Counted from the first letter of the stretch, positions 1-23,605 are shown. The stretch: 32,000 bases of DNA from Candidatus Methylomirabilis limnetica (GCF_003044035.1 NZ_NVQC01000013.1:90001-122000), one strand, 5' to 3'. Notes: a model not told the origin generated them from the letters alone. Made by a program: numbers and translations.

Positions 1-249
1 TGGTGCTCTGTTTGAATCGTCATGGTATCCCCCTCCCATACCCAGATCGCTTCTCGCATCGCCGGGGGCGTGAGTCAATATTCGGTCCCCTCGCCCTTAG
101 TCCAAGAGTATAGTAGAATTCATGCGAAGAGCAAGCTTGCAGTTGATCCGAGAGCCGGGGTCAGTATCGACGGCACGAACCAAAGCCATCCCGCGCTTGA
201 CACCAGCCTCAAAATACGGGTACGCTCCCCATCAAGTAGAGCCTAGTTA

Positions 250-405
250 TTACTCAGAGCATACAATAGCGTGCCTCCCCCTTTCGCAAAGGGGGGTAAG
301 GGGGGATTTTAACGATCGGTAAAACCCCCTCAATCCCCCTTTTGTAAAGGGGGAAGTTGCTGGAGATGTTGTGCAAGAGTGCAATCTAGTTAATGCTCCC
401 CGTAA
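250..405 (+). mobile_element. 156-bp MITE, copy 1 (TA target-site duplication, imperfect 13-bp TIRs, hairpin-rich core)
   Basis: A near-identical 156-bp copy lies at 6758-6913. The termini TTACTCAGAGCAT ... ATGCTCCCCGTAA are inverted repeats (10/13). TA lies on both sides (248-249, 406-407). A paralogous unoccupied site gcctagtCAtatggagcgg lies at 12805-12823. Confidence 0.75.
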
Positions 406-536
406 TATATGGAGCGGACTGCGAGGAGTTACGGTTCGTGGAAGCAGAGACGATAGAAGTAGAGCGGGTCAAAGCTACTGGTGTGTACAGCCGAGTATAC
501 CACCTGCCACATGACGACGATCAGGGAGATGTTCCA

Positions 537-845
537 ATGGCTACGATCCCAGATGGGGTGAATCAGAGTGCTCAGCGTTTCCTGGCGGCAATGCGACAGC
601 ATGTGCAGGCAGCCTACGTGTACGGCTCTCAGGTCAAGGGTACGGCTGTTGAGTGGAGCGACATCGATCTGGCGGTGGTATCGCCGGATTTTTCCGCCGA
701 TCTGTTTCAGGAGCGGCTTGCCTTAATGCGCCTCGCTGCCCAAATCGATGACCGCATTGAGCCTCATCCCTTTACACCAGAAGATTTCAACGACACCGAT
801 TCGCTTGCTAGTGAGATTCGCCGGACAGGGGTGCGGATCGCGTAA
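537..845 (+). CDS. minimal nucleotidyltransferase (MNT / Pol-beta superfamily), antitoxin-like, no HEPN partner seen
   Basis: The ORF is 393..845. The motif YVYGSQVKGTAVEWSDIDLAVV is the GS-x(n)-DxD nucleotidyltransferase signature. ATG 537 is preceded by GGGAGA (523-528). The longer start at 393 lies inside the MITE right TIR and is probably fortuitous. Confidence 0.7.
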   Translation: MATIPDGVNQSAQRFLAAMRQHVQAAYVYGSQVKGTAVEWSDIDLAVVSPDFSADLFQERLALMRLAAQIDDRIEPHPFTPEDFNDTDSLASEIRRTGVRIA

Positions 846-877
846 GCCCGTTTCAGCGACTTGAGTTCCTTAACAAA

Positions 878-1305
878 GGGGTCAGGCATGCCTTATTGCC
901 TCTTGGTGATTCCCGTCGTACGTCGTAGGATCGGGCATGGCACGAAAACCGCGAGTGTATTGTCCAGGCGCCCTGTATCATGTGATCTGCCGTGGCAATC
1001 ACGGCCCACGGATCTTGTCGGATGACGCCGACCGAGGGCGATATCTGGAGTTGCTTCAAGACACCCGACTGCGGTGTGACTGTCGCCTGTAGGCCTATGG
1101 TCTGATGGGCAATCACGTCCACCACCTGATCGAAGTCGGTCCAACCCCGTTGTCCAAAATCATGCAAAAATCTTCTATTCCGTTACACGCGGTACTGGAA
1201 CCAGCGATACCGGAAGGTGGGACATCTTTTCCAAGGCCGGCATAAAGCGATCCTATGCGAGAGGGAAAGCTATTTACTGGAGTTGGTCCGATACAGTCAT
1301 CTAAT
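878..1305 (+). mobile_element. IS-like element copy A: left TIR plus 5' part of the Y1-transposase gene, truncated and pseudogenised
   Basis: The left TIR GGGGTCAGGCATGCCTTATTG is at 878-898. ATG 937 opens MARKPRVYCPGALYHVICRGN... A TAG at 1090-1092 replaces the Tyr codon seen in the other copies. There is a 1-nt insertion near 1166-1170. Homology to copies B-D stops near 1305 (..LVRYSHL). Confidence 0.85.
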
Positions 1306-1391
1306 CAGAAAAAGGGGACAGATTTATTTTCCTCGACGCGCAGCCGTTGGAACTGGAGCCGGCCGGGATGCGATGACATTCATTGGCGTTA

Positions 1392-1739
1392 TTAACCGAG
1401 GATTATGGGAAGTGCTCGCCGAAGCGCCTGCCGATCTTCCTCTATCAATTGTCCAAGCTTTCGGAGGATCAGTTCCTTCTCAACCGTGGTAAAGATAGGC
1501 TTGATGGTCGAGGGTTTCAGCAACCCGGCCTGCTGCCAGTGTTGGATTATTACTTCGCCCACCGTGGTCGAGGGTCGGATTTGACTGGTCACGGCCAGCA
1601 GAATAAGGTCAGGACGCTCCCGATGGTAGGCTTCAGAGCTCACCACTACGGCGGGGCGCCTCTTACTGGCGGTCTGATCCGTGAAGGGGAAAGGGACCAG
1701 GACGATGTCTCCAAACTTAAAGCTTATCGTAGACGGCAT
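1392..1739 (-). CDS. PemK/MazF-family type II toxin (mRNA interferase)
   Basis: The translation FGDIVLVPFPFTDQTASKRRPAVVVSS...DLILLAVTSQ matches the MazF/PemK N-terminal signature. The gene overlaps the upstream small ORF by 23 nt. Confidence 0.8.
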   Translation of the reverse strand: MPSTISFKFGDIVLVPFPFTDQTASKRRPAVVVSSEAYHRERPDLILLAVTSQIRPSTTVGEVIIQHWQQAGLLKPSTIKPIFTTVEKELILRKLGQLIEEDRQALRRALPIILG

Positions 1740-1941
1740 CGTCCGGATTGTCCCAAACCATTTGGAAGGCCTCTTCCGACAGCTTCATGGCGGCCCGGGT
1801 GAGGCGACGGTCCTCCATGCGCAGGCGCAGGAAGTCCACGAAATCCTCCACCTCGGCCACCTTCTCCGGCGGCAGGGTGATAATCTTTTCCATGAGGTTT
1901 TTCTGAGAGTCAGACTGGACGGACATCGTTTTGCCTCCCAT
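1717..1941 (-). CDS. putative antitoxin partner of the MazF-like toxin (DUF2281-like)
   Basis: A 74-aa ORF lies immediately upstream of and overlapping the toxin gene. LPPEKVAEVEDFVDFL and the C-terminal WDNPDDAVYDKL are typical of small antitoxins paired with PemK toxins. Confidence 0.6.
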   Translation of the reverse strand: MGGKTMSVQSDSQKNLMEKIITLPPEKVAEVEDFVDFLRLRMEDRRLTRAAMKLSEEAFQMVWDNPDDAVYDKL

Positions 1942-2044
1942 GCCTCATTAGCCCTCAGTGGCGTAGAAAGATAACATCAATGATGTTTACTGAGTAGTGT
2001 ACTGGTGATAAGGCGACATGTCAAATGAAGCGTAAAGTCATAAA

Positions 2045-2176
2045 TGAGCCTGTCCTGCAAACCCCTTGTTGTGCTTAGACAGGCTCAGCAGAACGGGAAA
2101 ACGTCAATCTTCAATGCCCATACCGTTCGCCCTGAGCATGTCGAAGGGTGAACGGGGGGTTTGCAGGACAGGCTCA
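2045..2176. repeat. 132-bp MITE-like unit with perfect 21-bp inverted termini
   Basis: TGAGCCTGTCCTGCAAACCCC (2045-2065) is the exact reverse complement of 2156-2176. The interior (2114-2150) carries, in reverse orientation, the ~40-bp motif also seen at 6593-6634 and 11421-11460 (cacccttcgacNNgctcaggg[c/t]gaacgg). Confidence 0.7.
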
Positions 2177-2228
2177 AATAAGAATAAATAGAATGGGGTC
2201 AGGCATGTTAAGAATGGTAAGAAAGAAT

Positions 2229-3262
2229 GGGGTCAGGCATGCCTTATTAACCTGCGGTGATTCCCGTCGTAGGATCGAGCATGGCACGAAAACCACGAGT
2301 GTATTGTCCATGCGCCCTGTATCATGTGATCGGCCGTGGCAATCAAGGCCAACCGATCTTTTCGGATGACGCCGACCGGCGGCGATATCTGGAGTTGCTT
2401 CAAGAAACCCGACTGCGGTATGACTTTCGCCTGTATGCCTATGTTCTGATGGGCACTCACGTCCACCACCTGATCGACATCGGTCCACCCCCATTGTCCA
2501 AGATCATGCAAAATCTTCTATTCCGTTACACGCGGTACTGGAACCAGCGATATCGGAAGGTGGGACATCTTTTCCAAGGCCGGCATAAAGCGATCCTATG
2601 CGAGAAGGAACGCTATGTGCTGGAGTTGGTCCGATACATTCATCTCAATCCGGTGCGGAGCCGAATCGTCCGAGATCCGAGCCGATACGCCTGGAGCAGC
2701 CACGGGGCGGGTGTCAGGGGGAAGGGCTCCTAGGTGGATTGCAGTCGAGGAGGTTCTGCCTCGGTGGGGCAGTCGGCGGTCCGACGCGGTGGCGGCCTAT
2801 CAGCGATTTGTGCGCGAAGGGTTGAAAGAAGGACATCGGGCGGATTTGTACGAGGTGGTGGATCAGCGGTATCTGGGAGATGATGCGTTCGTGCAGGAAG
2901 TGACGGGGCGGTTAAAGAACGAGGAGCCGCCGCAAGCGGTGGCCGTGACATGGGAAGAGATATGCAAGGGGGTGTTCAAACAGTGTGGTGTGTCGGCTGG
3001 GGCCGTGATGGATCGGGGCAAGGAGCGGGGCGCGGTGCGGATCAAACGGGTGATGGCCTGGGTAGGAAGAGAGGTCGGCGGCTTGAGAACCGGGAGATGG
3101 CTCAAGCCCTGAGGCAAGACCCCGGGTCGTTGAGCCGGGGTGTCAGAAATCTGGTGGACCAGAGGGAGAAGGACCAGGACCTCGTGACGTCGGTGCAGGT
3201 CCTGTGTGAGACGATGCGAAGAGGGCGGCCTTTTAAAATGACAATAAGGCAAGCCTGACCCC
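2229..3262 (+). mobile_element. IS-like element copy B: full length (1034 bp) with both TIRs; Y1/HUH transposase + DnaA-C-like HTH gene broken by two frameshifts
   Basis: The left TIR is at 2229-2249 and the right TIR caataaggcaagcctgacccc ends at 3262 (20/21 match as an inverted repeat). The ORF pieces are 2281..2733, then a +1 frame to about 3087, then 3088..3258. The HUH motif is GTHVHHLIDI. YTRYWNQRYRKVGHLFQGRHKA and YIHLNPVRSRIV..YAWSSH are typical of IS200/RAYT-type (COG1943) proteins. The C-terminal NREMAQALRQDPGSLSRGVRNLV resembles the DnaA domain IV HTH. Confidence 0.85.
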
Positions 3263-3346
3263 TAATCCGTTCCCGCTCGGCACACCCTTCGTGAACGAAG
3301 CTTGCAGAAATGTCTAGCGATTCACGAGTAGGTCCAAGAAGGAGAA

Positions 3347-3431
3347 TGGAGCGCCGCAACGTGTGACAAGGCGAACCCTCCCCCCTTCACGTAACCATAT
3401 GATGATCGCATGCATGTTGGTGCCAAGTGGA
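3347..3431 (+). repeat. direct repeat R1 flanking a TA cassette
   Basis: About 75% identical by eye to 4300-4376. Shared blocks are tggagcgc, aaggcgaacc, ttcacg.aaccatatgatg and gccaagtgga. Confidence 0.6.
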
Positions 3432-3476
3432 AAGTGGGGTGGTGCTGGACAGGTACTGGTAAAGGATGGTACGGCT

Positions 3477-3782
3477 TCACGGGTGAGGCGTGATAGCAAC
3501 AACGATGATCTCACCCCGCTTGGTCCCGTAGTGCCAGAAGATCCGGTAGGCCGCTGGCGTCTTACTCTCTGCGTAGGTTGCAAAAACCTTTTCCCCATGC
3601 AGACCCTTCAGGCTTTTGTATTCGTGGGCATTGAGACTCGGATGGTGCATGTTGGTTTCCATGAGGCCGAGGGTTTTTCGTACCGCCTTCAGGCGTTTCT
3701 CAAGGCCTTTGTCTCGCTCAAGCGCCTCTAGTTGCTTGCCTGCGGTCGGAGTGAATGTCAGCGTGAATCGAGGCGAGTTCAC
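3477..3782 (-). CDS. RelE/ParE-superfamily type II toxin
   Basis: A 101-aa ORF. The N-terminal FTLTFTPTAGKQLEAL and the C-terminal AAYRIFWHYG...IIVVAITPHP follow the RelE/ParE pattern. It starts 3 nt after the upstream small ORF. Confidence 0.6.
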   Translation of the reverse strand: MNSPRFTLTFTPTAGKQLEALERDKGLEKRLKAVRKTLGLMETNMHHPSLNAHEYKSLKGLHGEKVFATYAESKTPAAYRIFWHYGTKRGEIIVVAITPHP

Positions 3783-3785
3783 CCG

Positions 3786-4121
3786 TTAACCGATCTCATC
3801 GTTGGCGTGCTTAGCAAAAGAGCCGATCTTACGTGCCTTACCATGTCCGGCTTCTTCCAGGCCTCGGCGCACGCTCTCAAGTGCGGCCTTGTTGTTGTAA
3901 AGCCAAGCTTCATGGAGTGGGACGGTAACTTCTGGGGAGAGCAGGATCTGGCCCGCTTTGTTGCACGCGATCTTGAAGCGTAGCCTCTCCACGTCCTCGC
4001 CTATTACGGCTTGCAGGGCTTCGATAGCCTTACTGAGGGTGATGCGCTTTTTGCTGTCCAAGGTGCCCTTTCCAACGGGTGTGAAATACTCGTCTAGCAA
4101 AGCTTCATTGGATGACATCAT
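3786..4121 (-). CDS. putative antitoxin of the RelE/ParE-like toxin
   Basis: A 111-aa ORF directly upstream in the same orientation. GKGTLDSKKRITLSKAI resembles an AbrB/SpoVT-type swapped-hairpin DNA-binding N-terminus. Confidence 0.45.
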   Translation of the reverse strand: MMSSNEALLDEYFTPVGKGTLDSKKRITLSKAIEALQAVIGEDVERLRFKIACNKAGQILLSPEVTVPLHEAWLYNNKAALESVRRGLEEAGHGKARKIGSFAKHANDEIG

Positions 4122-4299
4122 TGCGTAATCTCCTTTAGCCTCGCTCCCACCGCTCGATCAATACCTACCCTCATTTCTTATCACTATCTTGTGGGCAAGA
4201 GAAGTTTACCCACTTTCCCACGCATTGTCAAGTTTCATTCTTCTTTGCCTTACGCGGCAACTCGCTCCTCGCGAGATTCCTACCCGGGTGCCCAACCGC

Positions 4300-4376
4300 T
4301 GGAGCGCAAAGGCGAACCTTCCCCCACCCTTTCACGAAACCATATGATGCCCTCCTGCCTTTTGGCGCCAAGTGGA
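4300..4376 (+). repeat. direct repeat R2 flanking a TA cassette
   Basis: Paralogue of R1 (3347-3431) in the same orientation. It lies 44 bp upstream of IS copy C. Confidence 0.6.
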
Positions 4377-4419
4377 GTCTTAGATAGTAACCGCCTGCGT
4401 TTCATCTAGTCATGGAAAT

Positions 4420-5548
4420 GGGGTCAGGCATGCCTTATTAACTTTCGGTGATTCCCGTTGCATGCTCGATCATGGCACGAAAACCGCGAGTTTATTTTCC
4501 AGGCGCTCTTTATCATGTGATCTGCCGTGGCAATCAAGGCCAACCGATCTTTTCGGATGACGCCGACCGAGGGCGATATCTGGAGTTGCTTCAAGAGACC
4601 CGACTGCGGTATGACTTTCGCCTGTATGCCTATGTTCTGATGGGCAATCACGTCCACCACCTGATCGAAGTCGGTCCAACCTCGTTGTCCGCCTTCCTGC
4701 ACACTCTTCTCTTCCGTGACACGCGGGACTGGACCCAGCGATACCGGGATGTGGGACATCTGTTCCACGGCCGGCATCACGCAATCCTCTGCGAGAAGGA
4801 CAGCTATTACTCAGAGCATACAATAGCGTGCCTCCCCCCTTTAGCAAAGGGGGGTAAGGGGGGTTTTGAACGATCTGGAAAACCCCCTCAATCCCCCTTT
4901 GCTAAAGGGGGAAGTTGCTGGAGGTGATCCGATACAGTCATCTCAATCCGGTGCGGAGCCGAATCGTCCGAGATCCGAGCCGATACGCCTGGAGCAGCCA
5001 CGGGGCGTATGTCAGGGGGAAGGGCTCCGGGTGGATGGCGGTCGAGGACGTGCTGCCTCGGTGGGGGAGGAGGTGGGGGCCTCTCAGCGATGTGTGCGCG
5101 AAGGGGTGAAAGAAGGACATCGGGCGGATGTGTACGAGGTGGTGGATCAGCGGTATCTGGGAGATGATGCGTTCGTGCAGGACGTAACGGGGCGGTTCAC
5201 GAACGAGGAGCCGCCGCACGCGGTGGCCGTGACATGGGAAGAGATATGCAAGGGGGTGTTCAAACAGAGTGGCGTGTCGGCTGGGGCCGTGAGGGATCGG
5301 GGCAAGGAGCGGGGAGCGGTGCGGATCACACGGGTGATGGCCTGGGGAGGAAGAGAGGTCGGCGGCGTGACGAACCGGGAGATGGCTCAAGCCCTAAGGC
5401 AAGACCCCGGGTCGGTGAGCCGGGGTGTCAGAAAGCTGGTGGACGAGATGGAGAAGGACCGGGACCTCGTGAAGTTGGTGCAGGTCCTGTGTGAGACGAT
5501 GCGAAGAGGGCGGCCTTTTAAAAAGACAATAAGGCACGCCTGACCCCT
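4420..5548 (+). mobile_element. IS-like element copy C: both TIRs present; transposase gene interrupted by a MITE fragment and a 13-nt deletion
   Basis: The left TIR is at 4420-4440 and the right TIR ..aataaggcacgcctgacccc ends at 5548. ATG 4472 opens MARKPRVYFPGALYHVICRGNQGQ..GNHVHHLIEV. About 107 bp of foreign sequence sits at 4809-4915. There is a frameshift after ..VLPRWG relative to copy B. The C-terminal part (to 5543) is otherwise readable. Confidence 0.85.
4809..4915 (+). mobile_element. partial MITE (left ~2/3 of the 156-bp element) inserted in the transposase gene of copy C
   Basis: It matches MITE positions from ..actcagagcatacaatagc.. to ..aaagggggaagtt. The junctions coincide with short identities shared by the MITE and the gene (gctatt on the left, gctggag on the right). 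Confidence 0.7.
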
Positions 5549-5577
5549 ACTGACCCCTACTACTACTATGATTGGTA

Positions 5578-5937
5578 TCAGTCCCAAGTACTGAGAAATT
5601 CCACATGATTCCTCATTTCCTCTGCCGAGTTGGCGGTAATCAGCTTCAGAATATGGCGCATCTGCTCACCCACGGAGTAGCGCTGTTGCCGTACAAGGAT
5701 CATGCCTGCGTGTGATTTCCCGCACCCCATAAAGGCGGTATGCAGATAATAGAAATCTCCCACGTTGAAACTATACAAAACGCGCCCCTGGGCTGTCGCA
5801 TAATCCAGGTGCTCCTCATCCGCGCGTTCTATCATGTCCGCCTCAAGGGCGGTAATCATGTCTACGCCGCGAGCCCGCAGAGCCTGAACCAGCGCTTGTC
5901 GCATGGAGTCCTCATCGAGGTAGAGGCGAATCGTCAT
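5578..5937 (-). CDS. DUF5615-family (PIN-like / Mut7-C-like) putative toxin
   Basis: IRLYLDEDS...LRARGVDMITALEADMIERADEEHLDYATAQGRVLYSFNVGDF matches the DUF5615 pattern. It overlaps the upstream DUF433 gene by 4 nt. Confidence 0.7.
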   Translation of the reverse strand: MTIRLYLDEDSMRQALVQALRARGVDMITALEADMIERADEEHLDYATAQGRVLYSFNVGDFYYLHTAFMGCGKSHAGMILVRQQRYSVGEQMRHILKLITANSAEEMRNHVEFLSTWD

Positions 5938-6230
5938 GAAGCCTTGCGGGAGAGAAAGTGCTCCCGCTCAAGTCGCTCAGCCTCCACCTCTTCTGCGGTG
6001 ATGTTGGCTTCAACCTCTTCCCGGTTGGCGTGATAGTAAGCCAGCGCTGCGTAAACCTGAGCTAGCGTCAGGTGAGGAATCTCGGCAACAATTTCTTCTG
6101 GACTCAGGCCCAGCTTGTACCAGCCCACAATGCGTCTTACCGTGACTCCAGTTCCGGCGACCCGTGGGCGTCCCCCACGCACCTCCGGTGTCCTAATAAT
6201 GAGTGCCCCGATGTCAATTGCAGTTGCCAT
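5934..6230 (-). CDS. DUF433-family putative antitoxin (HTH)
   Basis: PEVRGGRPRVAGTGVTVRRIVGWYKLGLSPEEIVAEIPHLTLAQVYAALAYY is the canonical DUF433 core. It is paired with a DUF5615 gene, as in many genomes. Confidence 0.75.
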   Translation of the reverse strand: MATAIDIGALIIRTPEVRGGRPRVAGTGVTVRRIVGWYKLGLSPEEIVAEIPHLTLAQVYAALAYYHANREEVEANITAEEVEAERLEREHFLSRKAS

Positions 6231-6390
6231 AGTCCTTATGCCCCTCCTTCGCGGCTTCGCTGTCCGTAGTCAGGGTATCGCGCAGAGTCCGGTATCGCTC
6301 CAAGAACCCTTGCTGATCCACGGTCACCGCCCTCCAAAACGTGAGCGCCTTCATCGGACTTCTCGCTTTGACCCGTCACCCCCTGCCTTT

Positions 6391-6653
6391 CGGGGGTCCT
6401 CCGATTACGCCAGATCCCTTTCATGTACTCGGTTCGGCATGGGATTACTGTAGCAGAGCTATAGGGAAAGAACAAGGACGCTGGAGAAGGGGACCCTTAG
6501 TGGTCTGTTTCACAATTACGGTCACATATCCGTTCGTGGTGAGCAGTTCGACAGGCTCACCACAGGCTTGTCGAACCATGAACGGGGAGGCCACCCTTCG
6601 ACTGGCTCAGGGCGAACGGATTCGTGGGCATAGTTATGAAATGCGGTACTTAG
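6391..6653 (+). repeat. duplicate of the block upstream of gmd (paralogue of 11241-11480)
   Basis: Colinear, high identity by eye. This copy has an extra 23 bp (agttcgacaggctcaccacaggc). It contains the hairpin ccgttcgtgg..ccatgaacgg and the motif cccttcgactggctcagggcgaacgg. Confidence 0.85.
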
Positions 6654-6700
6654 GCATCGTCAAAGAATAACATGTACATATTCATGATCCGAAAAATGCA

Positions 6701-6745
6701 CAAACCCCCTCTTTCCCCCTTTCGAAAGGGGGATGAAGGGGGTAG
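6701..6745. repeat. solo REP-like hairpin unit
   Basis: A perfect 18-bp palindrome ccccctttcgaaaggggg lies at 6715-6732 with C-run and G-run shoulders. It belongs to the same family as the hairpins in the MITE and at 19913-19985, 21851-21897 and 23493-23605. Confidence 0.7.
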
Positions 6746-6757
6746 ATGTAAATGTTA

Positions 6758-7365
<608 letters not shown>

Positions 7366-7429
7366 TGGGAGGTTACACAATTCAGCTCGTCAGGTCTTTT
7401 GCGCTCAGTGTCGCACGGCCTGATCCTCG

Positions 7430-7669
7430 TTAGATCTGATCCAGAAGTTCGAAATAGCGGTCACGACTTATTCCTGCGGTTTTGAGGTTCGTCAAGACGT
7501 GGGTGACAGGCAGCTCGTGCGGGCTTGTTTTGATGACCACAGGGCGTTTCATTCTCGGCTTCGTCAGGATGAGATGGTCTCCCTTTTGGCGCGTAACAAC
7601 TCAGCCATCCAACTCAAAAAGCTTCACGACCTTTTGAAAAGGGAGAGGCGTAATCTTCCGGGAAGTCAT
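7430..7669 (-). pseudogene. hicA: HicA-family toxin gene with TGA replacing the conserved Trp codon
   Basis: My own translation is MTSRKITPLPFQKVVKLFELDG*VVTRQKGDHLILTKP..., an 80-codon frame. The stop (plus-strand tca at 7601-7603) falls where HicA/YcfA proteins have G-W/F before the RQKGSH motif. The gene starts 10 nt after the hicB stop. Confidence 0.65.
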
Positions 7670-7678
7670 TGGTGGGGC

Positions 7679-7945
7679 TTAGCCAATAGCAACCATTTCG
7701 GCAGAGATGGGCTGGCGAGCCATCCATTGCCCATTCTGTCGGACGAAACCCGCCTCTTCCAAGACCTCTTCCAGCGTTCCGATCGCTTCACACTCCTCGA
7801 GGAAGGCTTCCACGGCTTCCCGCAGGGCACTCTTGGCGTCTTCCATGGTCTCTCCAAAACTCGACACACTCAGGTCGAGGCAGACCCCAAGATATAGGTG
7901 GCCCTCCCGAAAGATTTCCGCCCGCACCACGATGGCCTGTTTCAT
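7679..7945 (-). CDS. hicB: HicB-family (UPF0150) antitoxin
   Basis: EGHLYLGVCLDLSVSSFGETMEDAKSALREAVEAFLEE matches the HicB N-terminal domain pattern (G-x-T-x-EEA..EA). Confidence 0.75.
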   Translation of the reverse strand: MKQAIVVRAEIFREGHLYLGVCLDLSVSSFGETMEDAKSALREAVEAFLEECEAIGTLEEVLEEAGFVRQNGQWMARQPISAEMVAIG

Positions 7946-7982
7946 CTCTCTTGACCCCCATTTTCACTCGACGATCATCGTT

Positions 7983-8156
7983 TCACGCACCGTTTCGAGT
8001 GGTACGCCACGACCCCGCAACCTCAACTTCGGCCACTTCAAGCTGAAGTGGCAACCCGTGCGCCCGATAAGTCTCGGCGCTGAGCGCAATCGCCTCGTGG
8101 ATGTGTGCTAAGGCCTCCTCGCGGGTACGTCCATATTCCCTCCCCCAAATATACAG
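7983..8156 (-). pseudogene. remnant of a second HicB-like antitoxin gene
   Basis: My own translation is ..GREYGRTREEALAHIHEAIALSAETYRAHGLPLQLEV.., which shows the G-R-T-x-EEA..EAI HicB motif. There is no start codon and a TGA lies immediately upstream in frame. Confidence 0.4.
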
Positions 8157-8264
8157 TCACCCTACCACAGTCGGAGCGCGCTCACAACCACGTGTCCGAC
8201 CGTCCACACAGCAGCACGCGGGTGTTGGGCCGGATCGTGGAGATGAGGTCAGGGTCAGAGGTCA

Positions 8265-8812
8265 GGGTCAGGCATGCCTTATTGCCTCTTGGTGATTCCC
8301 GTCGTACGTCGCATGATCGGGCATGGCACGAAAACCGCGAGCGTATTGTCCAGGCGCGCTTTATCATGTGATCTGCCGGGGCAATCAAGGCCAACGAAGC
8401 GTTTCGGATGACGCCGACCGAGGGCGATATCTGGAGTTGCTTCAAGAAACCCGACTGCGGTTTGACTTTCGCCTGTATGCCTATGTTCTGATGGGCAATC
8501 ACGTCCACCACCTGATCGAAGTCGGTCCAATCCCGTTGTTCAAAATCATGCAAAATCTTCTCTTCCGTTACACGCGGTGCTGGAACCAGCGATACCGGAA
8601 GATGGGACATCTTTTCCAAGGTCGGCACAAAGCGATCCTATGCGAGAAGGAAAGCTATTTGCTGGAGTTGGTCCGATACATTCATCTCAATCCGGTGCGG
8701 ACCCGACTCGTCCGAGATCCGAGCCGATACGCCTGGAGTAGCCACGGGACTTATGTCCGAGGGAATGGCTCTGGATGGATTCGAGGTCGAGGACGTTCTG
8801 CCTCGGTGGGGG
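8265..8812 (+). mobile_element. IS-like element copy D: left TIR plus 5' half of the transposase gene, fused to the gmd 3' end
   Basis: The left TIR (one G short) starts at 8265. ATG 8323 opens MARKPRAYCPGALYHVICRGNQGQ..GNHVHHLIEV..YIHLNPVRTRLV, and the Y1 domain is uninterrupted. Homology to copies B and C stops at ..cctcggtggggg (about 8812), where gmd sequence begins. Confidence 0.85.
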
Positions 8813-8860
8813 AAGCGGTGCCTTACCGATAGTCGGCTGGCGTGGCTCAGAAGGCCGTGA
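8809..8860 (+). pseudogene. gmd: gmd 3'-terminal ~50-bp fragment
   Basis: ggggaagcggtgccttaccgatagtcggctggcgtggctcagaaggccgtga matches 12652-12703. The junction with IS copy D lies in a shared GGGG run. Confidence 0.8.
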
Positions 8861-9001
8861 TGCAGTAACGCGATAATACGTGCGATTAATCGTGATACCT
8901 TGACCGCTTCGCCCTCCTTTTGCGTACCTTGACAGCGGGAGCTAGTTGATAGTATGATGTGTCTGTAAATCGGTATGAGCAGAAAAACAGAGAGGTATGT
9001 T

Positions 9002-9277
9002 ATGGATATCACGCTACAAGTGCGGCAGAGGGGCGCGCTCACGCTCCCCGCCAACCTGCGGGAGCGCTACAAGATCAAACCCGGCGATACGTATCGGGTC
9101 TTGGACCTGGACGGCATCCTGGTCCTCACACCCATGGTGCCCATGGTGCCTGAACTGGCCCGCGAGATAGAGCGCGCCCGCATCGAGGCGGGGTTAAGTG
9201 TTGAGGACCTGCTGGCGGCCCTGCGAGAGCAGCGTACGCGATACGCGCAAGAGAAGTATGGCCGAAAACGTCGATGA
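9002..9277 (+). CDS. vapB: AbrB/SpoVT-type antitoxin (VapB-like)
   Basis: MDITLQVRQRGALTLPANLRERYKIKPGDTYRV is a SpoVT/AbrB swapped-hairpin motif. ATG 9002 lies downstream of AGAGAGG. Its stop overlaps the PIN gene start (ATGA at 9274-9277). Confidence 0.75.
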   Translation: MDITLQVRQRGALTLPANLRERYKIKPGDTYRVLDLDGILVLTPMVPMVPELAREIERARIEAGLSVEDLLAALREQRTRYAQEKYGRKRR

Positions 9278-9729
9278 AGAGGCCGCTTGTCTTTCTCGAC
9301 GCGGACGTCCTCTTTGCCGGAGTTGCCGCGCCGACAGAGCAGGGCGCCAGTCACGTCGTCCTTAGATTAGGAGAGATCACCCTTATCGAATGTGTCACCT
9401 CCACCCAGGTGGTCACGGAAGTTGAACGCAACTTCGAAAAGAAGTTGCCCAGCAAGCTGCCCGAACTCCGACTGATTATCAGTCGCAGCCTCCGGGTCGT
9501 ACCTGATCCGGAACCTCACGAACTGCCCCCTTACAAAGGGCAGGCTGATCCCAAGGACCTGCCGATCCTGATCGCGGCTCTCACGCATGGCTGTCGCTAT
9601 CTGCTCACGTTCAATATCCGCCATTACGAACCCGCCACATCCGAGATCTTAGTCCAACGTCCGGGTGATTTCCTGGCAACCATTCGGACCCTCCTAGTTC
9701 AACTGGCAGCAGGGACCGAAAAGACGTAG
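9274..9729 (+). CDS. vapC: PIN-domain toxin (VapC-like)
   Basis: VFLDADVLFAG..(Asp 1), ..TEVERN.., ..DPKDLPILIAAL.. and ..LLTFNIRHY show PIN-type acidic residue spacing. The gene is translationally coupled to the AbrB antitoxin. Confidence 0.7.
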   Translation: MKRPLVFLDADVLFAGVAAPTEQGASHVVLRLGEITLIECVTSTQVVTEVERNFEKKLPSKLPELRLIISRSLRVVPDPEPHELPPYKGQADPKDLPILIAALTHGCRYLLTFNIRHYEPATSEILVQRPGDFLATIRTLLVQLAAGTEKT

Positions 9730-9767
9730 AGGTCGTACTCATCGGCCACTTCCTCATCCCGAACAAT

Positions 9768-9964
9768 GGGGTCAGGCATGCCTTATTGCCTCTTGGTGAT
9801 TCCCGTCGTGCGTCGTATGATCGGAGGGTCGTTGAGCCGGGGCGTAAGAAAGCTGGTGGAAGAGATGGAGAAGGACCGGGACCTCTTGAAGTCGGTGCAG
9901 GTCCTCTGTGAGACGATGCGAAGAGGGCGGCCTTTTAAAAAGACAATAAGGCAAGCCTGACCCC
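9768..9964 (+). mobile_element. IS-like element copy E: 197-bp internal-deletion derivative retaining both TIRs
   Basis: The left end 9768-9825 matches the first ~58 bp of copies A and D. It is joined directly to the last ~140 bp (..SLSRGVRKLVEEMEKDRDL..RRGRPFKKTIRQA) and the right TIR ending at 9964. Confidence 0.85.
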
Positions 9965-9986
9965 TAACTACTCTGACCCCTAACTA

Positions 9987-10147
9987 CTCCGAAGCCAAGC
10001 GACGCCTCGTGGGAACCCGGGGTCACGTTCCGGGACCTGGTCAGGATCATGATGGACGCCGACCTCGATGCCGCGGGCCTAACCGCGCAAGGGCAGGGGA
10101 AGCGGTGCCTTACCGATGGTCGGCTGGACTGGCTCAGGAGACCGTGA
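9987..10147 (+). pseudogene. gmd: gmd 3' ~160-bp fragment
   Basis: Colinear with 12541-12703, with a 2-nt deletion after ..cgcctcg. It ends at the same TGA context (10145-10147). Confidence 0.8.
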
Positions 10148-10224
10148 TGGCGTACAACGGGTATAGGGGCGATTCGGTGGGCTAGTGAGGCAGTAGGAAG
10201 GCGGAAGGATCCCGATATCCAGGA

Positions 10225-10806
10225 CTAGGCGAGCACCTCATCCACCTGGATCTCAAACCCCACCAAGACCGACGATCGAGCTCTTTCCCCATGGCCGAAG
10301 CGCCCAATCAGACGATAACTCCCTTGCTCTAAGGCAAACACCTCTATCGTTCCCCCCTCCCAATCTACGATCCAATATTCGCCCACGCCGCATTGCTCAT
10401 ACAGCGCCTTTTTCTCAACATGGTCTCGTCGCCACGTCCCTGGCGAGACGACTTCAACGATCAGATCAGGTGCTCCGCGAATCTGGTCCTGAATGATCTC
10501 TTGTCTGGCATGTGAGACATAGACGATATCGGGTTGCACGACCCGCCGTGGTGTCAGGACGACATCCAAAGGCGCAAGTAAGACTTCACCCAATTGAGGT
10601 ATGGACACAAATTGAGCCAGCAGGCGAGCCACACGGAAAGAGATTCTCTGGTGCTGTGCAACCGGCGAAGGCGTCATGACGAGATCTCCTTCCCATAGTT
10701 CGGTCGGTTGATTCGTCTCAGTCTTCTCAGCGAGCAGTTCGTTGTACGTCCACACTCGCTTTCCCTGTAAAGCCTTTGTCGCCATTGTGGTCACCTCCTC
10801 CGCCAC
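10225..10806 (-). CDS. Uma2-family (DUF820) PD-(D/E)xK endonuclease-like protein
   Basis: YNELLA...ELWEGDLVMTPSPVAQHQRISFRVARLL..VVQPDIVYV..APDLIVEVVSPGTWRRDHVEKKALYEQCGVGEYWIVD is the canonical Uma2 pattern, including the D..EVxS..K catalytic-like motif. Confidence 0.85.
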   Translation of the reverse strand: MAEEVTTMATKALQGKRVWTYNELLAEKTETNQPTELWEGDLVMTPSPVAQHQRISFRVARLLAQFVSIPQLGEVLLAPLDVVLTPRRVVQPDIVYVSHARQEIIQDQIRGAPDLIVEVVSPGTWRRDHVEKKALYEQCGVGEYWIVDWEGGTIEVFALEQGSYRLIGRFGHGERARSSVLVGFEIQVDEVLA

Positions 10807-11240
10807 TCACCAACCCTCACCCTGCGAGAGCATGCTTGGGCGAGCCCATTCGGCATCAAAGCAGCTTACGACGGATCGGCCAGTCCCTGGACGGCTCTAC
10901 GGCCTTAGACATCAGAGGACCGGCCAGACGTAGGTGAGGTTACTCCTAGCCTCTCTGTACCACATAGAGGTGACGGCCGTCAAGCAGGACGCCGCGCACC
11001 CCAACGTCAACGACACACGTTCTTCCACACCCGGATACCCTCCCGTTAGGAGCCACAGTAGCCGATGTACTGCACGCCTTCTTGGGTTTAGCCGATCCTT
11101 TTCGCCCATCGTCGCACGGCTCGGTCAACCGTCTGGGCATCAGGCCATGGGAAGACGGGCGAACGTCATGATCTTACCGGCATAACGGAGAGCCTCCCTA
11201 CTGGGCCGCAAAGCAGGCCCACTCATGCCGGCCCGCATTC

Positions 11241-11480
11241 CGGGAGTCCTCCGATTGCGCCAGATCCCTTTCATGTGTTCGGTGCGGCATGGTATTACTG
11301 TAACAGAGCTATGGGGAAAGAACAAGGACGCGGGAGAGGGGGAGCCTTCGTGGTCTGTTTCACAATTACGGTCACGTATCCGTTCGTGGTGAGCTTGTCG
11401 AACCATGAACGAGGAGGCCACCCTTCGACTGGCTCAGGGTGAACGGATTCATGGGCATAGTTATGAAATGCTGTACTTAG
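11241..11480 (+). repeat. block upstream of intact gmd, duplicated at 6391-6653
   Basis: See 6391-6653. It ends 183 bp before the gmd start codon. Confidence 0.85.
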
Positions 11481-11662
11481 TCGCGGAGAGGCGACGGGGC
11501 CCTTAGCTGACCGACGTGTTGTCTTGACATGGGGGTCCACTTCAGGCACGCTGTAGCAACCGGATGGTCCCGCCTGCCGGCGAAGAGGGCCAGTTCTGTA
11601 CGATGAGGATTCAGGGGGCTACCGCTAACGGCTCCATCGGACGCGCAACAAGGAGACCCCAT

Positions 11663-12703
11663 ATGCCAACCGCGATCATCACCGGAATCACCGGGCAAGA
11701 CGGCTCGTACCTGGCCGAGCTACTGCTCGCGAAGGGCTACACGGTCCACGGGCTGATCCGGCGGGCCAGTACGTTCCATACGGAGCGGATCGAGCATCTC
11801 TACCAGGATCCGCACGACCCTCTAGCCCGCATCGTCCTGCACTATGGCGATCTCTCCGATTCAAGCCAGCTCACGAACCTGTTCTATGAGGTCCGGCCAG
11901 ATGAGGTCTATCACCTGGGGGCGCAAAGCCATGTGCGAGTGAGCTTCGACATGCCGGACTACACCGGAGACATCACTGGGCTCGGCGCAGTCCGGTTACT
12001 GGAGGCGATCCGTAAGAGCGGGGTGGGGTGCCGGATCTACCAGGCCTCTAGCAGTGAGATGTATGGGGACGCCCCCGCGCCCCAGAACGAGCAGAGCCGC
12101 TTCCAACCGCGCAGCCCCTACGCGGCCGCCAAGCTCTATGCTTACTGGATGGTACGCAATTACCGCGAAGGATACGGCCTCTTCGCCTGTAACGGCATTA
12201 TGTTCAACCATGAGTCGCCTCGGCGGGGGGAGACCTTCGTGACACGGAAGATTACGCGAGCCGTGTCCGCCATCCTCGCCGGGCGGCAGAAGACGCTGTT
12301 TCTGGGCAACCTCGAGGCTCGACGCGATTGGGGGTTTGCGCCGGAGTACGTCGAGGGGATGTGGCTGATGCTCCAGCAGGAAGCACCGTGTGACCTGGTC
12401 TTCGGGACAGGGGAGACCCATTCGGTGCGAGAGTTCGTGGAGGAGGCGTTCGGCTATGTCAACCTGGACTGGCGGGAGTATGTGGCGGAGGACCCGCGCT
12501 ACTTACGCCCGACCGAGGTCCCGCTCCTGCTGGCCGATCCCTCCGAGGCCAAGCGGCGGCTCGGATGGGAGCCCGGGATCACGTTCCGGGATCTGGTCCG
12601 AATCATGATGGACGCCGACCTGGAGGCCGCAGGTCTGCCCGCACCAGGGGAGGGGAAGCGGTGCCTTACCGATGGTCGGTTGGCGTGGCTCAGGAAGCCG
12701 TGA
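11663..12703 (+). CDS. gmd: GDP-mannose 4,6-dehydratase
   Basis: [26 protein letters not shown] (Rossmann GxxGxxG), SSSEMYG and [12 protein letters not shown] (the SDR Y-xxx-K) are present. AGGAGA at 11651-11656 precedes ATG 11663. The 11564 start in the ORF track adds 33 non-homologous residues. Confidence 0.95.
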
Positions 12704-12758
12704 AGGGGGCTACGCGATCGGCTTGGCCTGATCCACGACGAAGGGATCATATGTGGTT

Positions 12759-12898
12759 GCTTGACAGCGGCCCCCGAATGCAGGAACGCTCCCCATCAAG
12801 TAGAGCCTAGTCATATGGAGCGGACTGCGAGAAGTTACGGTTCGTGGAACCAGAGACGATAGAAGTAGAGCGGGTCGCGTAAGCTCGTTTCAGCGACT
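12759..12898 (+). repeat. paralogue of the window-start locus (194-246 + 408-470 + 840-868), lacking the MITE and the nucleotidyltransferase gene
   Basis: The block gcttgaca..cgctccccatcaagtagagcctag / tatggagcggactgcgag.agttacggttcgtggaa.cagagacgatagaagtagagcgggtc / gcgtaagc.cgtttcagcgact is shared. The unoccupied MITE site is at 12811-12814. The deletion junction relative to 471-839 is at 12876/12877. Confidence 0.8.
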
Positions 12899-13161
12899 CG
12901 TGTGCGCTGGCGGACGAAGACGTCTTGCTGCGCCGCAAAGCACATCCACTTGTGGCGCCCAGCCCTCTGGGAATTCACCGACTGTTCCAGCCCCCTTAAC
13001 ACAGATGTAAGACGCGATAGTACACCGAACCTACCGATCAGGTTGCCGTTTGATCAATTGGTGCCGCTTCCCTCGAGGAGAACCAGTGCGCAGGTTAATT
13101 TATCCGCCAAGGATTACATCGAAGAGGACTTCCGTTCCGAAGGGGTAGGAGGCGGGGGCAA

Positions 13162-19912: not shown

Positions 19913-19985
19913 ACCCTCCTCACCTTCCTTTGCCAAAGGGAGGGTTAACCCCTCTTTGGAAAAGAGGGGCGAGGGGAGATTTTCT
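19913..19985. repeat. pair of REP-like hairpins in the gcvT-gcvH spacer
   Basis: ccttcctttgccaaagggagg (one G-T pair) and cccctctttggaaaagagggg (perfect 9-bp stem) are followed by cgaggggagatttt, the same shoulder as in the gcvPB insert. Confidence 0.7.
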
Positions 19986-21831: not shown

Positions 21832-23429
21832 AGGATGAGGTGCGAGACACATCTCCCCATCCCCCCTTTGGTAAAGGGGGGCGAGGGGGGATTTCATCTG
21901 GGCAAAGCGCCAAATGCGAGGAAGAAGGGGCGGGTGTCGGCGCACAGGGACTCACCTTCAATGAGCCGCTCCTGTTTGATCAGGGTTCACCGGGACGGCG
22001 AGGCTGCACGCTTCCTGAGTGCGACGTCCCGGAGCTGAAGCCGGAGCGACTGCTGCCCAGAAAGCTCCTCCGGCACGACATTCCCGGTTTCCCGGAACTG
22101 TCCGAAGTCGAGGTGGTCCGGCATTTCACGCGGCTATCGCAATGGAATTACGGAGTCGATACGGGCTTCTACCCATTGGGCTCCTGCACGATGAAATACA
22201 ACCCGAAGATCAATGAGGAAGTATGGCGGTTGCCAGGCTTCTCCCTCGCGCACCCGTATCAGCCGGAGAGCCTGATCCAGGGCGCCTTGGAGCTGATGTA
22301 TGAGCTGGAGCAGTTCCTGGCCGAGGTGAGCGGGATGGACCGGGTGTCACTCCAGCCGGCCGCCGGAGCCCAGGGGGAGGTCTTGGGCATGATGCTGATC
22401 CGGGCGTACCTGGAATCGAAGGGGAGCCCACGGAAACGGGTCCTGGTCCCTGACTCCGCCCATGGCACCAATCCTGCGAGTTCCGCCATCTGTGGCTACG
22501 AGGTGCTGCAGATCAAGTCCGGGCCGAACGGCCGCTTGGACCCACAGGTCGTGGCCAACGCGATGGACGAGGACGTTGCCGCCATCATGGTCACGAATCC
22601 CAATACCCTTGGGCTATTCGAGGATCAGATCGCTGAGATCGCCAAGATTGTTCACGCCAAGGGCGGGCAGGTCTACTGCGACGGCGCCAACCTGAATGCC
22701 ATCATCGGGATATCGAGACCGGGCGACACGGGGATCGACGTCCTGCACTTCAACCTGCATAAGACGTTTGCCGTCCCACACGGGGGCGGCGGTCCTGGCG
22801 CGGGACCGGTGGGGCTCAAGGCGCATCTCGCACCATTCATGCCGGTCCCGGTCATCGAGAAGAAGGGGAGGCGATTTGTCCTGAATGACGACCTGCCGTC
22901 AAGTGTCGGCAGGGTGCGGGCCTTCTATGGGAACTTCGCGGCGCTGGTCCGGGCCTACGCCTATATCCGTTCGCTGGGTCCATCGGGACTGCGCCGTGTA
23001 GCCGAGGTGGCCGTAATCAATGCCAATTACATCATGAGCCAGCTCAAAGACCACTACCATCTGCCGTACGACACGTTCTGCAAGCACGAGTGCGTCTTCT
23101 CCGATGCGCGCCAGCTTCCGCACGGCGTCCAAACCATCGACATCGCCAAGCGACTGATGGATTACGGCTTTCATCCCCCAACCATCTACTTCCCCCTGAT
23201 CGTCAAGGGGGCCATGATGATCGAGCCGACCGAGACCGAGAGCAAGGAGACGCTGGATCAGTTCATCGACGCCATGAAGCGGATCGCCGAGGAGGCCGAG
23301 CGCGATCCGGAGCTAGTCCGGTCCGCCCCGCACAAGACCAAGGTCTCGCGGCTGGACGAGGTAAAGGCCGCCCGTCAGCCGAATCTGCGCTGGAAGGGAA
23401 AGACATCAGGAGAAGAGAGCGGGAGCTGA
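21828..23429 (+). CDS. gcvPB: glycine dehydrogenase (decarboxylating) subunit 2, with a ~40-aa N-terminal insertion derived from a REP-like element
   Basis: FYPLGSCTMKYNPKINE and the PLP-lysine context HFNLHKTFAVPHGGGGPG are present. ATG 21828 follows GGAGGTG and overlaps the gcvPA stop (ATGA). The conserved N-terminal EPLLFDQGSPGRRG only begins at residue ~46. Confidence 0.9.
   Translation: MKDEVRDTSPHPPFGKGGRGGISSGQSAKCEEEGAGVGAQGLTFNEPLLFDQGSPGRRGCTLPECDVPELKPERLLPRKLLRHDIPGFPELSEVEVVRHFTRLSQWNYGVDTGFYPLGSCTMKYNPKINEEVWRLPGFSLAHPYQPESLIQGALELMYELEQFLAEVSGMDRVSLQPAAGAQGEVLGMMLIRAYLESKGSPRKRVLVPDSAHGTNPASSAICGYEVLQIKSGPNGRLDPQVVANAMDEDVAAIMVTNPNTLGLFEDQIAEIAKIVHAKGGQVYCDGANLNAIIGISRPGDTGIDVLHFNLHKTFAVPHGGGGPGAGPVGLKAHLAPFMPVPVIEKKGRRFVLNDDLPSSVGRVRAFYGNFAALVRAYAYIRSLGPSGLRRVAEVAVINANYIMSQLKDHYHLPYDTFCKHECVFSDARQLPHGVQTIDIAKRLMDYGFHPPTIYFPLIVKGAMMIEPTETESKETLDQFIDAMKRIAEEAERDPELVRSAPHKTKVSRLDEVKAARQPNLRWKGKTSGEESGS
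21851..21897. repeat. REP-like hairpin inside the gcvPB coding sequence
   Basis: The hairpin cccccctttggtaaagggggg lies at 21861-21881, with shoulders atctcccc / ggggggatttc. It is translated in frame as SPHPPFGKGGRGGIS. Confidence 0.75.
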
Positions 23430-23492: not shown

Positions 23493-23605
23493 GCATCCGA
23501 CAAACCCCCCTGACCCCCCTTTCAGAAAAGGGGGGGGGATATTCCTGATACGCCTCCGTGCCTCCCCCTTTCGTAAAGGGGGATTGAGGGGGGTTTGTCG
23601 GATGC
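23493..23605. repeat. 113-bp composite palindrome (two REP-like hairpins inside an 18-bp perfect outer inverted repeat) downstream of gcvPB; possible terminator or mRNA stabiliser
   Basis: gcatccgacaaacccccc (23493-23510) is the exact reverse complement of 23588-23605. The inner hairpins are cccccctttcagaaaagggggggg and ccccctttcgtaaaggggg. The segment cgtgcctccccctttcg.aaaggggg is shared with the MITE core. Confidence 0.7.

Follow-up and report, generated by a model that had tools for sequence, protein, structure and literature searches.

Probable relics of a multi-copy TIRtron in Candidatus Methylomirabilis limnetica and a candidate nick site in its terminal inverted repeats

Five decayed copies of one unit

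We analyzed a stretch of 32,000 nucleotides from Candidatus Methylomirabilis limnetica (NZ_NVQC01000013.1, positions 90001-122000), termed here the window, and found in it five copies (A to E) of a unit of about 1.03 kb that is bounded by terminal inverted repeats (TIRs) and encodes a Y1 HUH nuclease-type transposase (Table 1). The copies were sought over the whole window by repeat finding, multiple alignment and blastn/tblastn, and no fragments beyond these five were detected anywhere in its 32 kb. A search for the 21-nt end GGGGTCAGGCATGCCTTATTG that tolerated three mismatches yielded eight matches, each with zero or one mismatch, and the same end was absent from 100 dinucleotide-preserving shuffles (0 expected by chance). 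The five matches on the plus strand are the left TIRs of the copies, and the three on the minus strand are the right TIRs of B, C and E, the copies at which the ends are paired. The left and right ends are identical at 20 of 21 positions, and AGGCATGCCT within the end is a palindrome. The flanks just outside the TIRs are unrelated among all five copies. A first-pass annotation of this DNA, made from the sequence alone, had described a TIR-bounded unit of this length in five copies with such ends, and the end matches, the end identity and the palindrome bear it out. Two of its coordinates need correction: copy C ends at 5547 rather than 5548, and copy D starts at 8264 rather than 8265 because its first base is A instead of G.

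An intact 325-aa open reading frame (ORF) is present in none of the five copies, and every copy has a different lesion; all the lesions given in the first-pass annotation were confirmed. Copy A contains the nonsense codon TAG at 1090-1092 and an additional A near 1167-1171, and it is truncated after ~1306. The ORF of copy B, which starts at 2281, has suffered a one-base insertion leading to TAG at 2731-2733 and a one-base deletion near 3088. Its stop codon TGA forms part of the right TIR (GCCTGACCCC; ...ACA ATA AGG CAA GCC TGA CCCC), which therefore also encodes the conserved C-terminus "...IRxA*". Copy C is interrupted at 4804-4925 by a 122-bp G-rich miniature inverted-repeat transposable element (MITE) and has a 13-nt deletion near 5078. 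In copy E the internal deletion joins ~9824 to ~9826; as a single strand, this 197-bp copy folds into a TIR panhandle (z = -2.8). Copy D is truncated at its 3' end and joined at ~8809 to a 3' fragment of the GDP-mannose dehydratase gene gmd. It retains an uninterrupted ORF of 169 aa (8323-8832; GenBank entry PTL36707.1, labelled transposase) with the complete HUH/Tyr (Y1) domain and without the DNA-binding domain. Since this ORF spans the whole nuclease domain, the earlier statement that all copies are dead is established for the full-length protein and not for the nuclease domain.

Pairwise divergence among the window copies is 7-12%. Their alignment contains two sequence subtypes, A/D/E and B/C, which are separated by a 7-nt indel and nearby substitutions.

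Table 1. Copies of the unit, duplications at their ends and other features of the window (positions counted from its first nucleotide)
Feature	Position	Strand	Description
Copy A	878 to ~1306	+	5' 428 bp of the element; left TIR 878-898
Copy B	2229-3262	+	Full length, 1034 bp; left TIR 2229-2249, right TIR 3242-3262
Copy C	4420-5547	+	Full length plus inserted MITE; left TIR 4420-4440, right TIR 5527-5547
Copy D	8264 to ~8812	+	5' ~549 bp; left TIR 8264-8284, first base A
Copy E	9768-9964	+	197 bp, internal-deletion derivative; left TIR 9768-9788, right TIR 9944-9964
Partial duplication, B left end	2191-2241	+	GAATGGGGTCAGGCATG at 2191-2207 and 2225-2241; 17-nt spacer; direct reading
Duplication, C right end	5541-5560	+	TGACCCCTAC x2; inner boundary 7 nt inside TIR
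Duplication, D left end	8245-8270	+	GAGGTCAGGGTCA x2, 13 nt; inner boundary after (A)GGGTCA
Duplication, E right end	9958-9989	+	TGACCCCTAACTACTC x2, 16 nt; inner boundary 7 nt inside TIR
Nucleotidyltransferase	393-845
PemK/MazF and antitoxin	1392-1941
Toxin-antitoxin pair	3477-4121
DUF5615/DUF433	5578-6230
HicB-like gene	7679-7945
AbrB-like and PIN	8975-9729
Uma2	10225-10806

The encoded protein

Repair of copy B gave a 325-aa product. It scores 43.8 bits against Pfam Y1_Tnp (PF01797; cut-off 23) and has no significant match to DnaA models when searched alone (E about 0.1). Of the NCBIfam models, REP_Tyr_transpos (NF047646) gives 65.7 bits, below its cut-off of 80, and transpos_IS200 (NF033573) gives a non-significant 13.9 bits (cut-off 55, E=0.046). 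The product has more than 7000 homologues, most of them exactly 325 aa long. Many homologues carry precomputed PF08299 (Bac_DnaA_C) together with PF01797, and they are named in their sources either "transposase" or "REP-associated tyrosine transposase" (RAYT; REP, repetitive extragenic palindrome). Alignments of 23-94 homologues show no variation at H60, H62, Y119 and N123 and almost none at P124; these residues constitute the HUH motif (H60-x-H62) and the class-2 Y-x-x-x-N-P motif with the catalytic Tyr119. A family profile matched only DnaA DNA-binding domains in the PDB, with the best match to 3pvp (E=8.5e-9, residues 222-317).

A structure was modelled with AlphaFold for P0001, an intact homologue 90% identical to the repaired ORF (predicted local distance difference test score, pLDDT, 84). 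The closest structure to the N-terminal domain is that of Escherichia coli TnpAREP with a REP hairpin (4er8; template modelling (TM) score 0.75, root-mean-square deviation (rmsd) 2.3 A), followed by the TnpA proteins of IS608 and ISDra2. The C-terminal domain superimposes on the DNA-binding domain of Mycobacterium tuberculosis DnaA (3pvp) with TM 0.86 and rmsd 1.5 A. As modelled, the protein is composed of three parts: an N-terminal RAYT-like Y1 HUH nuclease, a helical linker, and a C-terminal DNA-binding domain resembling DnaA domain IV. It is the sole ORF of the unit, and a DDE domain is absent. The product proposed earlier for this locus was a fusion of a Y1/HUH nuclease with a helix-turn-helix (HTH) resembling DnaA domain IV. 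The proposal holds on the Y1_Tnp score, which is significant for the repaired ORF, on the profile match to 3pvp and on the fold matches; the DnaA-C part is seen with the family profile and the structure and not with the repaired ORF alone.

Assignment to the TIRtron class

The closest known system is the TIRtron, or TIRYT (Di Nocera, De Gregorio & Rocco 2013, BMC Genomics 14:522, PMC3733652; Quentin et al. 2018, BMC Genomics 19:475, PMC6006769). The names were given by Di Nocera et al. to RAYT-like Y1 genes at which TIRs replace REPs. Many TIRtron TIRs, those of the main TIRYT group, have the outer motif GGGGWSAS in common, the 3' TIR may overlap the gene end, and the TIRs occur too as single, dimeric or clustered repeats (PMC3733652). 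Quentin et al. equated TIRYT with subclass 2.1 of TnpAY1, characterized by a C-terminal Bac_DnaA_C, HTH_23 or HTH_28 domain; this subclass is present in 14.9% of the strains that they sampled and is the second largest group of Y1 HUH nucleases (PMC6006769). Low copy number per genome is reported for class 2 TnpAY1 genes as a property and not as a defining criterion.

The window element has the Y1 HUH motif in a protein longer than RAYTs, the C-terminal DnaA-C-like HTH, and flanking TIRs instead of REP hairpins. Every end contains GGGGTCAG, an exact fit to GGGGWSAS, the 3' TIR overlaps the gene end, and in some genomes the TIRs are also found as solo and dimeric repeats. It differs from the published low-copy TIRtrons in that the whole unit occurs in five decayed copies of two subtypes within 9 kb. 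The first-pass annotation had held that the unit fits neither the IS200/IS605 nor the RAYT class cleanly. That claim does not stand, since TIRtron/TIRYT and subclass 2.1 are already described, and in substance both ends and protein are known from the literature. Its remark that the multi-copy state is atypical agrees with the low copy number reported for class 2 and with three other lineages that are confined to a single locus (see below).

TIRYTs are probably the same as RAYT "Group 1" of Bertels et al. (2017), a candidate link that we infer. No biochemical study of any TIRYT was found in the literature. Neither terminal tandem duplications nor a two-module structure of the TIR, both described below, are mentioned in the accessible parts of the TIRYT literature, and the terms "duplication" and "target site" are absent from the accessible text of Di Nocera et al. 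(2013). The multi-copy status of the Methylomirabilis subfamily and the terminal duplications of the type "flank + GGGGTCA" go beyond the searchable literature.

Relatives and the structure of the terminal inverted repeats

A scan of one genome per species with the query GGGGTCAGGCNTGCCTTATT found the exact 20-nt end at 53 loci from several phyla, none of them from Methylomirabilis limnetica. According to the labels of the metagenome-assembled genomes (MAGs), the loci belong to Desulfobacterales, Syntrophaceae, Nitrospirota, Geobacteraceae, Alphaproteobacteria, Piscirickettsiaceae and Actinomycetota. The conservation of the ends at other copies, on which the idea of a TIR-bounded unit depended, thus extends across phyla. 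Three of the loci (L002, L016, L053) hold intact elements of 1035 bp with 325-aa genes, and many are solo ends or REPIN- or MITE-like TIR-TIR doublets of 54-91 bp. At some loci the end is near-identical although the proteins are just 34-36% identical.

Doublets of 62-91 bp in Desulfobacterales MAGs (L004, L008, L014, L025, L032, L040, L049, L051, L052) match the Methylomirabilis element exactly over the outer 20 nt and form small REPIN-like families, such as a 91-bp family in MAG JAWOGI01. This 20-mer recurs in MAGs assigned to different phyla, including cases in which the cognate proteins are only ~35% identical.

A metagenome scan with the protein profile produced 80 loci at 34-56% identity, 78 of which could be scored. 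Most of the scorable homologues are flanked by TIRs of the GGGGTCAGGC type (variants GAC, GTC). The unit size is ~1.0 kb, mostly 980-1050 bp, and the distance from the TIR to the ATG is typically ~40-65 nt.

The anatomy of the TIR was computed over 39 distinct elements. Positions 1-10 are 94-100% conserved except for two (position 1, 74%; position 9, 78% between elements). At positions 11-26 the two arms of one element are 82-97% identical, and the identity between elements is 30-52%, with one position at 83%. In these alignments the TIR appears as two modules, a near-invariant 10-bp outer core, GGGGTCAGGC, and an element-specific inner module of 16-20 bp that is matched between the arms. The inner module often contains two tandem repeats of 8-9 nt, e.g. 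TTGCAATA TTGCAATT. A direct repeat with at least 6 of 8 matches was found in the inner TIR of 11/39 elements, compared with 2.7% in controls. The inner repeats were also compared with the DnaA box (TTATCCACA / TGTGGATAA); the likeness by eye is at best partial, and we do not claim it.

Among 91 units, 68 full and 23 short, none showed a target-site duplication of at least 4 nt. The dinucleotide AT is frequent beside both ends; it is self-complementary and therefore ambiguous, and may merely extend the TIR. Subterminal hairpins in the style of IS200/IS605 or REP were rejected as a feature of the element after DNA folding of the 82-83-nt ends on both strands (z from -0.6 to +0.6).

Terminal tandem duplications

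Many of the ends, among them those at copies C, D and E (Table 1), have in front of them an exact tandem repeat made up of "a few flank bases + GGGGTCA". We scored 328 unique ends, and 22 of them carry an exact tandem duplication whose inner limit falls 5-9 nt within the TIR. For random positions taken from these loci, the mean number of such duplications was 0.42 and the maximum 2 in 60 replicates, an enrichment of ~50-fold at the ends. The boundaries peak at positions 7-8 (seven at 7 and eleven at 8; 18 events), and the direction of the duplications is always outward. They occur at gene-proximal (6/75), gene-distal (4/40) and solo or unclassified ends (12/213).

The number of duplicated units varies at orthologous loci. 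Units of the "TGACCCC + ATTGC" type in the right flank of one conserved locus (P0039) differ in number between samples, and the E locus contains extra duplication units in one related assembly (L151), which are found neither in the window nor in another assembly (L152). An intact element on contig L160 has 4-5 tandem AAGTTAGGGTCA units outside its left end (4881-4960), and its right TIR (5960-6030 region) carries a 32-nt duplication. Units of the "TGACCCC + 4-6 nt" type make up a few dozen bases beyond the right TIR at single-copy TIRtron loci (L162-L168, right flank ~3478-3530; L172-L174).

The duplicated unit starts with G in 13 of 20 cases, so that the new junction again reads C|T. The TnpAREP proteins of E. 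coli and Stenotrophomonas maltophilia cut at C|T and form a 5'-phosphotyrosine link (PMC8266576). From the duplication footprints we infer a putative C|T nick 7 nt inside each end, GCC|TGACCCC.

Copies elsewhere and recombination between copies

It had been suggested that an intact copy exists elsewhere, and intact relatives at least 90% identical were indeed found (P0001, P0141, P0145, P0150). One intact element that is >90% identical (L160) is located at an unrelated locus among glycosyltransferase genes, on a 127-kb metagenome contig from a related population. The length of many metagenome contigs, 1.0-1.15 kb, is exactly that of one element; repeats that break assemblies usually leave this signature. 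In a plasmid survey, homologues were found in 28 of 72,556 records, one of them full-length; this rarity gives little support for plasmid-borne spread.

Closely related Methylomirabilis assemblies of the window region include a C/D recombinant from which ~3.8 kb is deleted (L149), a C5'/A3' hybrid that represents a reciprocal or duplication junction (L156), and an undeleted copy at the E locus (L151). Since the crossovers of the first two lie inside the copies and not at the TIR (~115 nt and ~170-300 nt from the left end by per-base alignment), we reject site-specific recombination at the TIRs as their origin and attribute them to ordinary homologous recombination. Comparison of L149, L151, L152, L155 and L156 with window positions 875-9970 reveals kilobase-scale rearrangements with endpoints in the TIRtron copies. 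The left flank of an A-like copy differs in related Methylomirabilis assemblies.

Genomic surroundings

The TIRtron copies are interspersed among toxin-antitoxin cassettes and related small genes (Table 1). No Rfam family matched within positions 1-13000.

The 3' end of gmd is present as three fragments (6943-7392, 8809-8887 and 9990-10150) that are 84-97% identical to the full gene at 11564-12703. Its surroundings are repeated as well: 6382-6653 resembles 11232-11480, and 195-250/407-470 resembles 12759-12876. Toxin-antitoxin cassettes and TIRtron copies lie between the gmd fragments, and copies D and E each adjoin one fragment. The gmd repeats look like the result of repeated accretion or rearrangement at one site.

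Other repeats include a family of G/C-tract palindromic MITEs at 246-407, 4804-4925 and 6754-6915, with the motifs CCCCCTTT(N)AAAGGGGG...GGGGGG. Hairpins related to this G-rich MITE were found at 6708-6747, 19943-19982, 21855-21894 and 23493-23605. At the MITE in copy C, element and target have a few bases in common at both junctions (left, TATT; right, TTGCTGGAG). Positions 2038-2183, just upstream of copy B, hold an inverted-repeat element of 146 bp whose two 33-nt arms show 85% complementarity. One related contig of the Logan collection (L157) apparently lacks ~2044-2208 and would represent an empty site for this 146-bp element. A 56-nt direct repeat (3376-3431 and 4321-4376, 80% identical) flanks the toxin-antitoxin pair at 3477-4121 and may mark a cassette boundary.

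Discussion

REPtrons, which combine a RAYT/TnpAREP gene with REP, bacterial interspersed mosaic element (BIME) or REPIN sequences, were reportedly studied by Nunvar (2010), Bertels and Rainey (2011), Ton-Hoang (2012), Messing (2012, PDB 4er8) and Corneloup (2021). The window element resembles them in the fold of its nuclease domain, the class-2 Y-x-x-x-N-P motif, the inverted flanking repeats, the REPIN-like non-autonomous doublets and the putative C|T site, which is the TnpAREP dinucleotide. Unlike REPs, its flanking repeats are not self-folding palindromes and have no GTAG-tagged hairpin; its protein has an additional predicted duplex-DNA-binding domain and does not reach the REP_Tyr_transpos cut-off. 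With IS200/IS605 elements such as IS608 and ISDra2 it shares the Y1 HUH fold and the lack of target-site duplication, and the proposed cleavage, which would assign the 3'-OH to the element and the tyrosine to the flank, would be like that at the IS608 right end. Those elements lack TIRs, have asymmetric subterminal hairpins with one-strand processing, and transpose strand-specifically as single-stranded DNA via a circular intermediate. The window ends are symmetric TIRs that do not self-fold, the footprint is alike at both ends, and the protein, at 2.5 times the length, includes an HTH domain.

We consider that the five units are probably relics of a TIRtron, and this assessment includes the mechanism and history proposed here. 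The HTH domain would bind the inner module of the TIR as a duplex, either in ordinary double-stranded DNA or in the stem of two TIRs paired on one strand. The HUH domain could then nick the core on the strand ...GCC|TGACCCC-3' at the C|T site 7 nt inside the end, so that the element side would retain the 3'-OH and the flank side would have its 5' end linked to the tyrosine. Such a polarity would match both the right-end cleavage of IS608 and the cleavage of REP by TnpAREP, and movement would proceed without target-site duplication. HUH chemistry yields a 5'-phosphotyrosine and a free 3'-OH. At an aborted nick, limited strand-displacement synthesis may extend the 3'-OH into the flank; once the 5' end held by the tyrosine is resealed to the extended strand, a tandem duplication of "TGACCCC + flank" would result. 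Nicking, extension and rejoining are the simplest account on established HUH chemistry, and would yield inner boundaries that are fixed, outer boundaries that vary, and duplications that run outward. Historically, the subfamily would have multiplied in at least two sublineages (A/D/E and B/C) before its copies decayed, and the present copies may serve mainly as substrates for homologous recombination.

The copies could also be accounted for without transposition of the whole unit. In a domesticated RAYT-like system, a resident single-copy TIRYT gene would spread just its TIRs, as REP/REPIN-like singles and doublets, and the five copies would be products of recombination or of segmental duplication, the region being prone to rearrangement. 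The region does contain other segmental repeats, including the gmd fragments, and recombination between the copies occurs. In the Desulfobacterales and Syntrophaceae MAGs, full units are far fewer than solo TIRs and doublets of 54-91 bp, and class 2 TnpAY1 genes are reported to have a low copy number. Three lineages (P0014, P0039, P0067), moreover, are each found at one conserved chromosomal site across 3-10 samples. Segmental duplication, however, is at odds with the unrelated sequence directly outside the TIRs at all five copies and with the two subtypes and 7-12% difference between them; the intact, >90% identical copy at an unrelated locus and the many contigs exactly one element long also argue for a unit that multiplied as a whole. 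We therefore regard domestication as a distinctly unlikely account of the window copies. TIRs of ~21-30 bp and a length of ~1 kb are typical of insertion sequences (ISs), which brings to mind a conventional TIR-bounded cut-and-paste IS moved by a transposase distinct from the Y1 protein, or through chemistry on double-stranded DNA of the DDE kind. DDE-type insertion sequences have a DDE transposase and a fixed-length target-site duplication. Here the Y1 HUH protein is the sole ORF, a DDE domain is absent and target-site duplications were found at 0 of 91 units, so that this origin is already contradicted and extremely improbable.

For the terminal duplications, the explanation to be weighed against nicking is that replication slips, or its forks stall, where an end is structured or bound by protein, or that the element prefers to insert beside existing GGGGTCA-like repeats. 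Some boundaries lie deeper (positions 13-25) or at the outer edge (positions 0-4) of the TIR, and some flanks contain spacer-separated, non-exact copies of GGGGTCA (window 2191-2241; the left flank of P0039); both observations favour this explanation. Neither slippage nor targeting accounts readily for the sharp peak of 18 events at positions 7-8, the ~50-fold enrichment over random positions or the strictly outward direction, and simple targeting of an existing motif leaves unexplained why the flank is duplicated together with GGGGTCA. The variation arises in place at orthologous loci, the candidate site coincides with the known TnpAREP cleavage dinucleotide, and 13 of 20 units start with the G that recreates C|T at the new junction. 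On balance we find slippage or targeting rather doubtful, and prefer nicking by the Y1 protein.

Several observations weigh against the TIRtron relics having the mechanism and history that we propose. The three stable single-locus lineages give the family a domesticated rather than an IS-like appearance. The copy count covers the 32-kb window of the source genome. Neither an empty site, as part of a filled/empty pair, nor a circle junction was found for the whole unit, and its mobility is accordingly deduced from copy number and differing flanks only. The putative nick site and its polarity are read solely from the duplication footprints, a minority of which have boundaries elsewhere: seven at positions 0-4 and about six at positions 10-24, the latter count leaving aside the repeats inherent to the inner TIR at 25-29. 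Excision would need a second cleavage, which was not located. In the window element itself the inner-TIR direct repeat is weak (5/8 matches).

A broader reading, which we offer as tentative, is that TIRtrons are a distinct and still-active HUH class whose ends resemble small sites of the replication-origin type, and that the Methylomirabilis subfamily represents a genuine IS-like burst. The DnaA-domain-IV-like domain would read the element-specific 8-9-bp iterons of the inner TIR and thereby direct nicking by the Y1 nuclease to the C|T that lies 7 nt into the universal GGGGTCAGGC core, symmetrically at both ends. The outward "TGACCCC + flank" duplications would then be a genomic record of nicking, extension and resealing. 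At rolling-circle Rep origins of geminiviruses and parvoviruses, iterons are located beside the nick site. A conserved nick core beside element-specific short direct repeats could be compared with them as a functional analogy only; the Rep proteins belong to a different HUH clade, and rolling-circle replication is without support for the window element.

TIRYTs may be either selfish insertion sequences or domesticated genes. The window adds a lineage in which the whole unit probably multiplied and then decayed. For annotation, the fragments in copies D and B, now listed as "transposase" or "hypothetical protein", are better described as transposon relics. Such relic copies act as recombination substrates that yield structural variants between strains. 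Comparison with relatives gives a testable prediction of the cut site and polarity of the enzyme, and the two-module structure of the TIR suggests a universal core combined with element-specific iterons for the DnaA-like domain. If the origin-like reading is true, natural sequence variation would directly reveal where, and with which polarity, a widespread HUH family cleaves.

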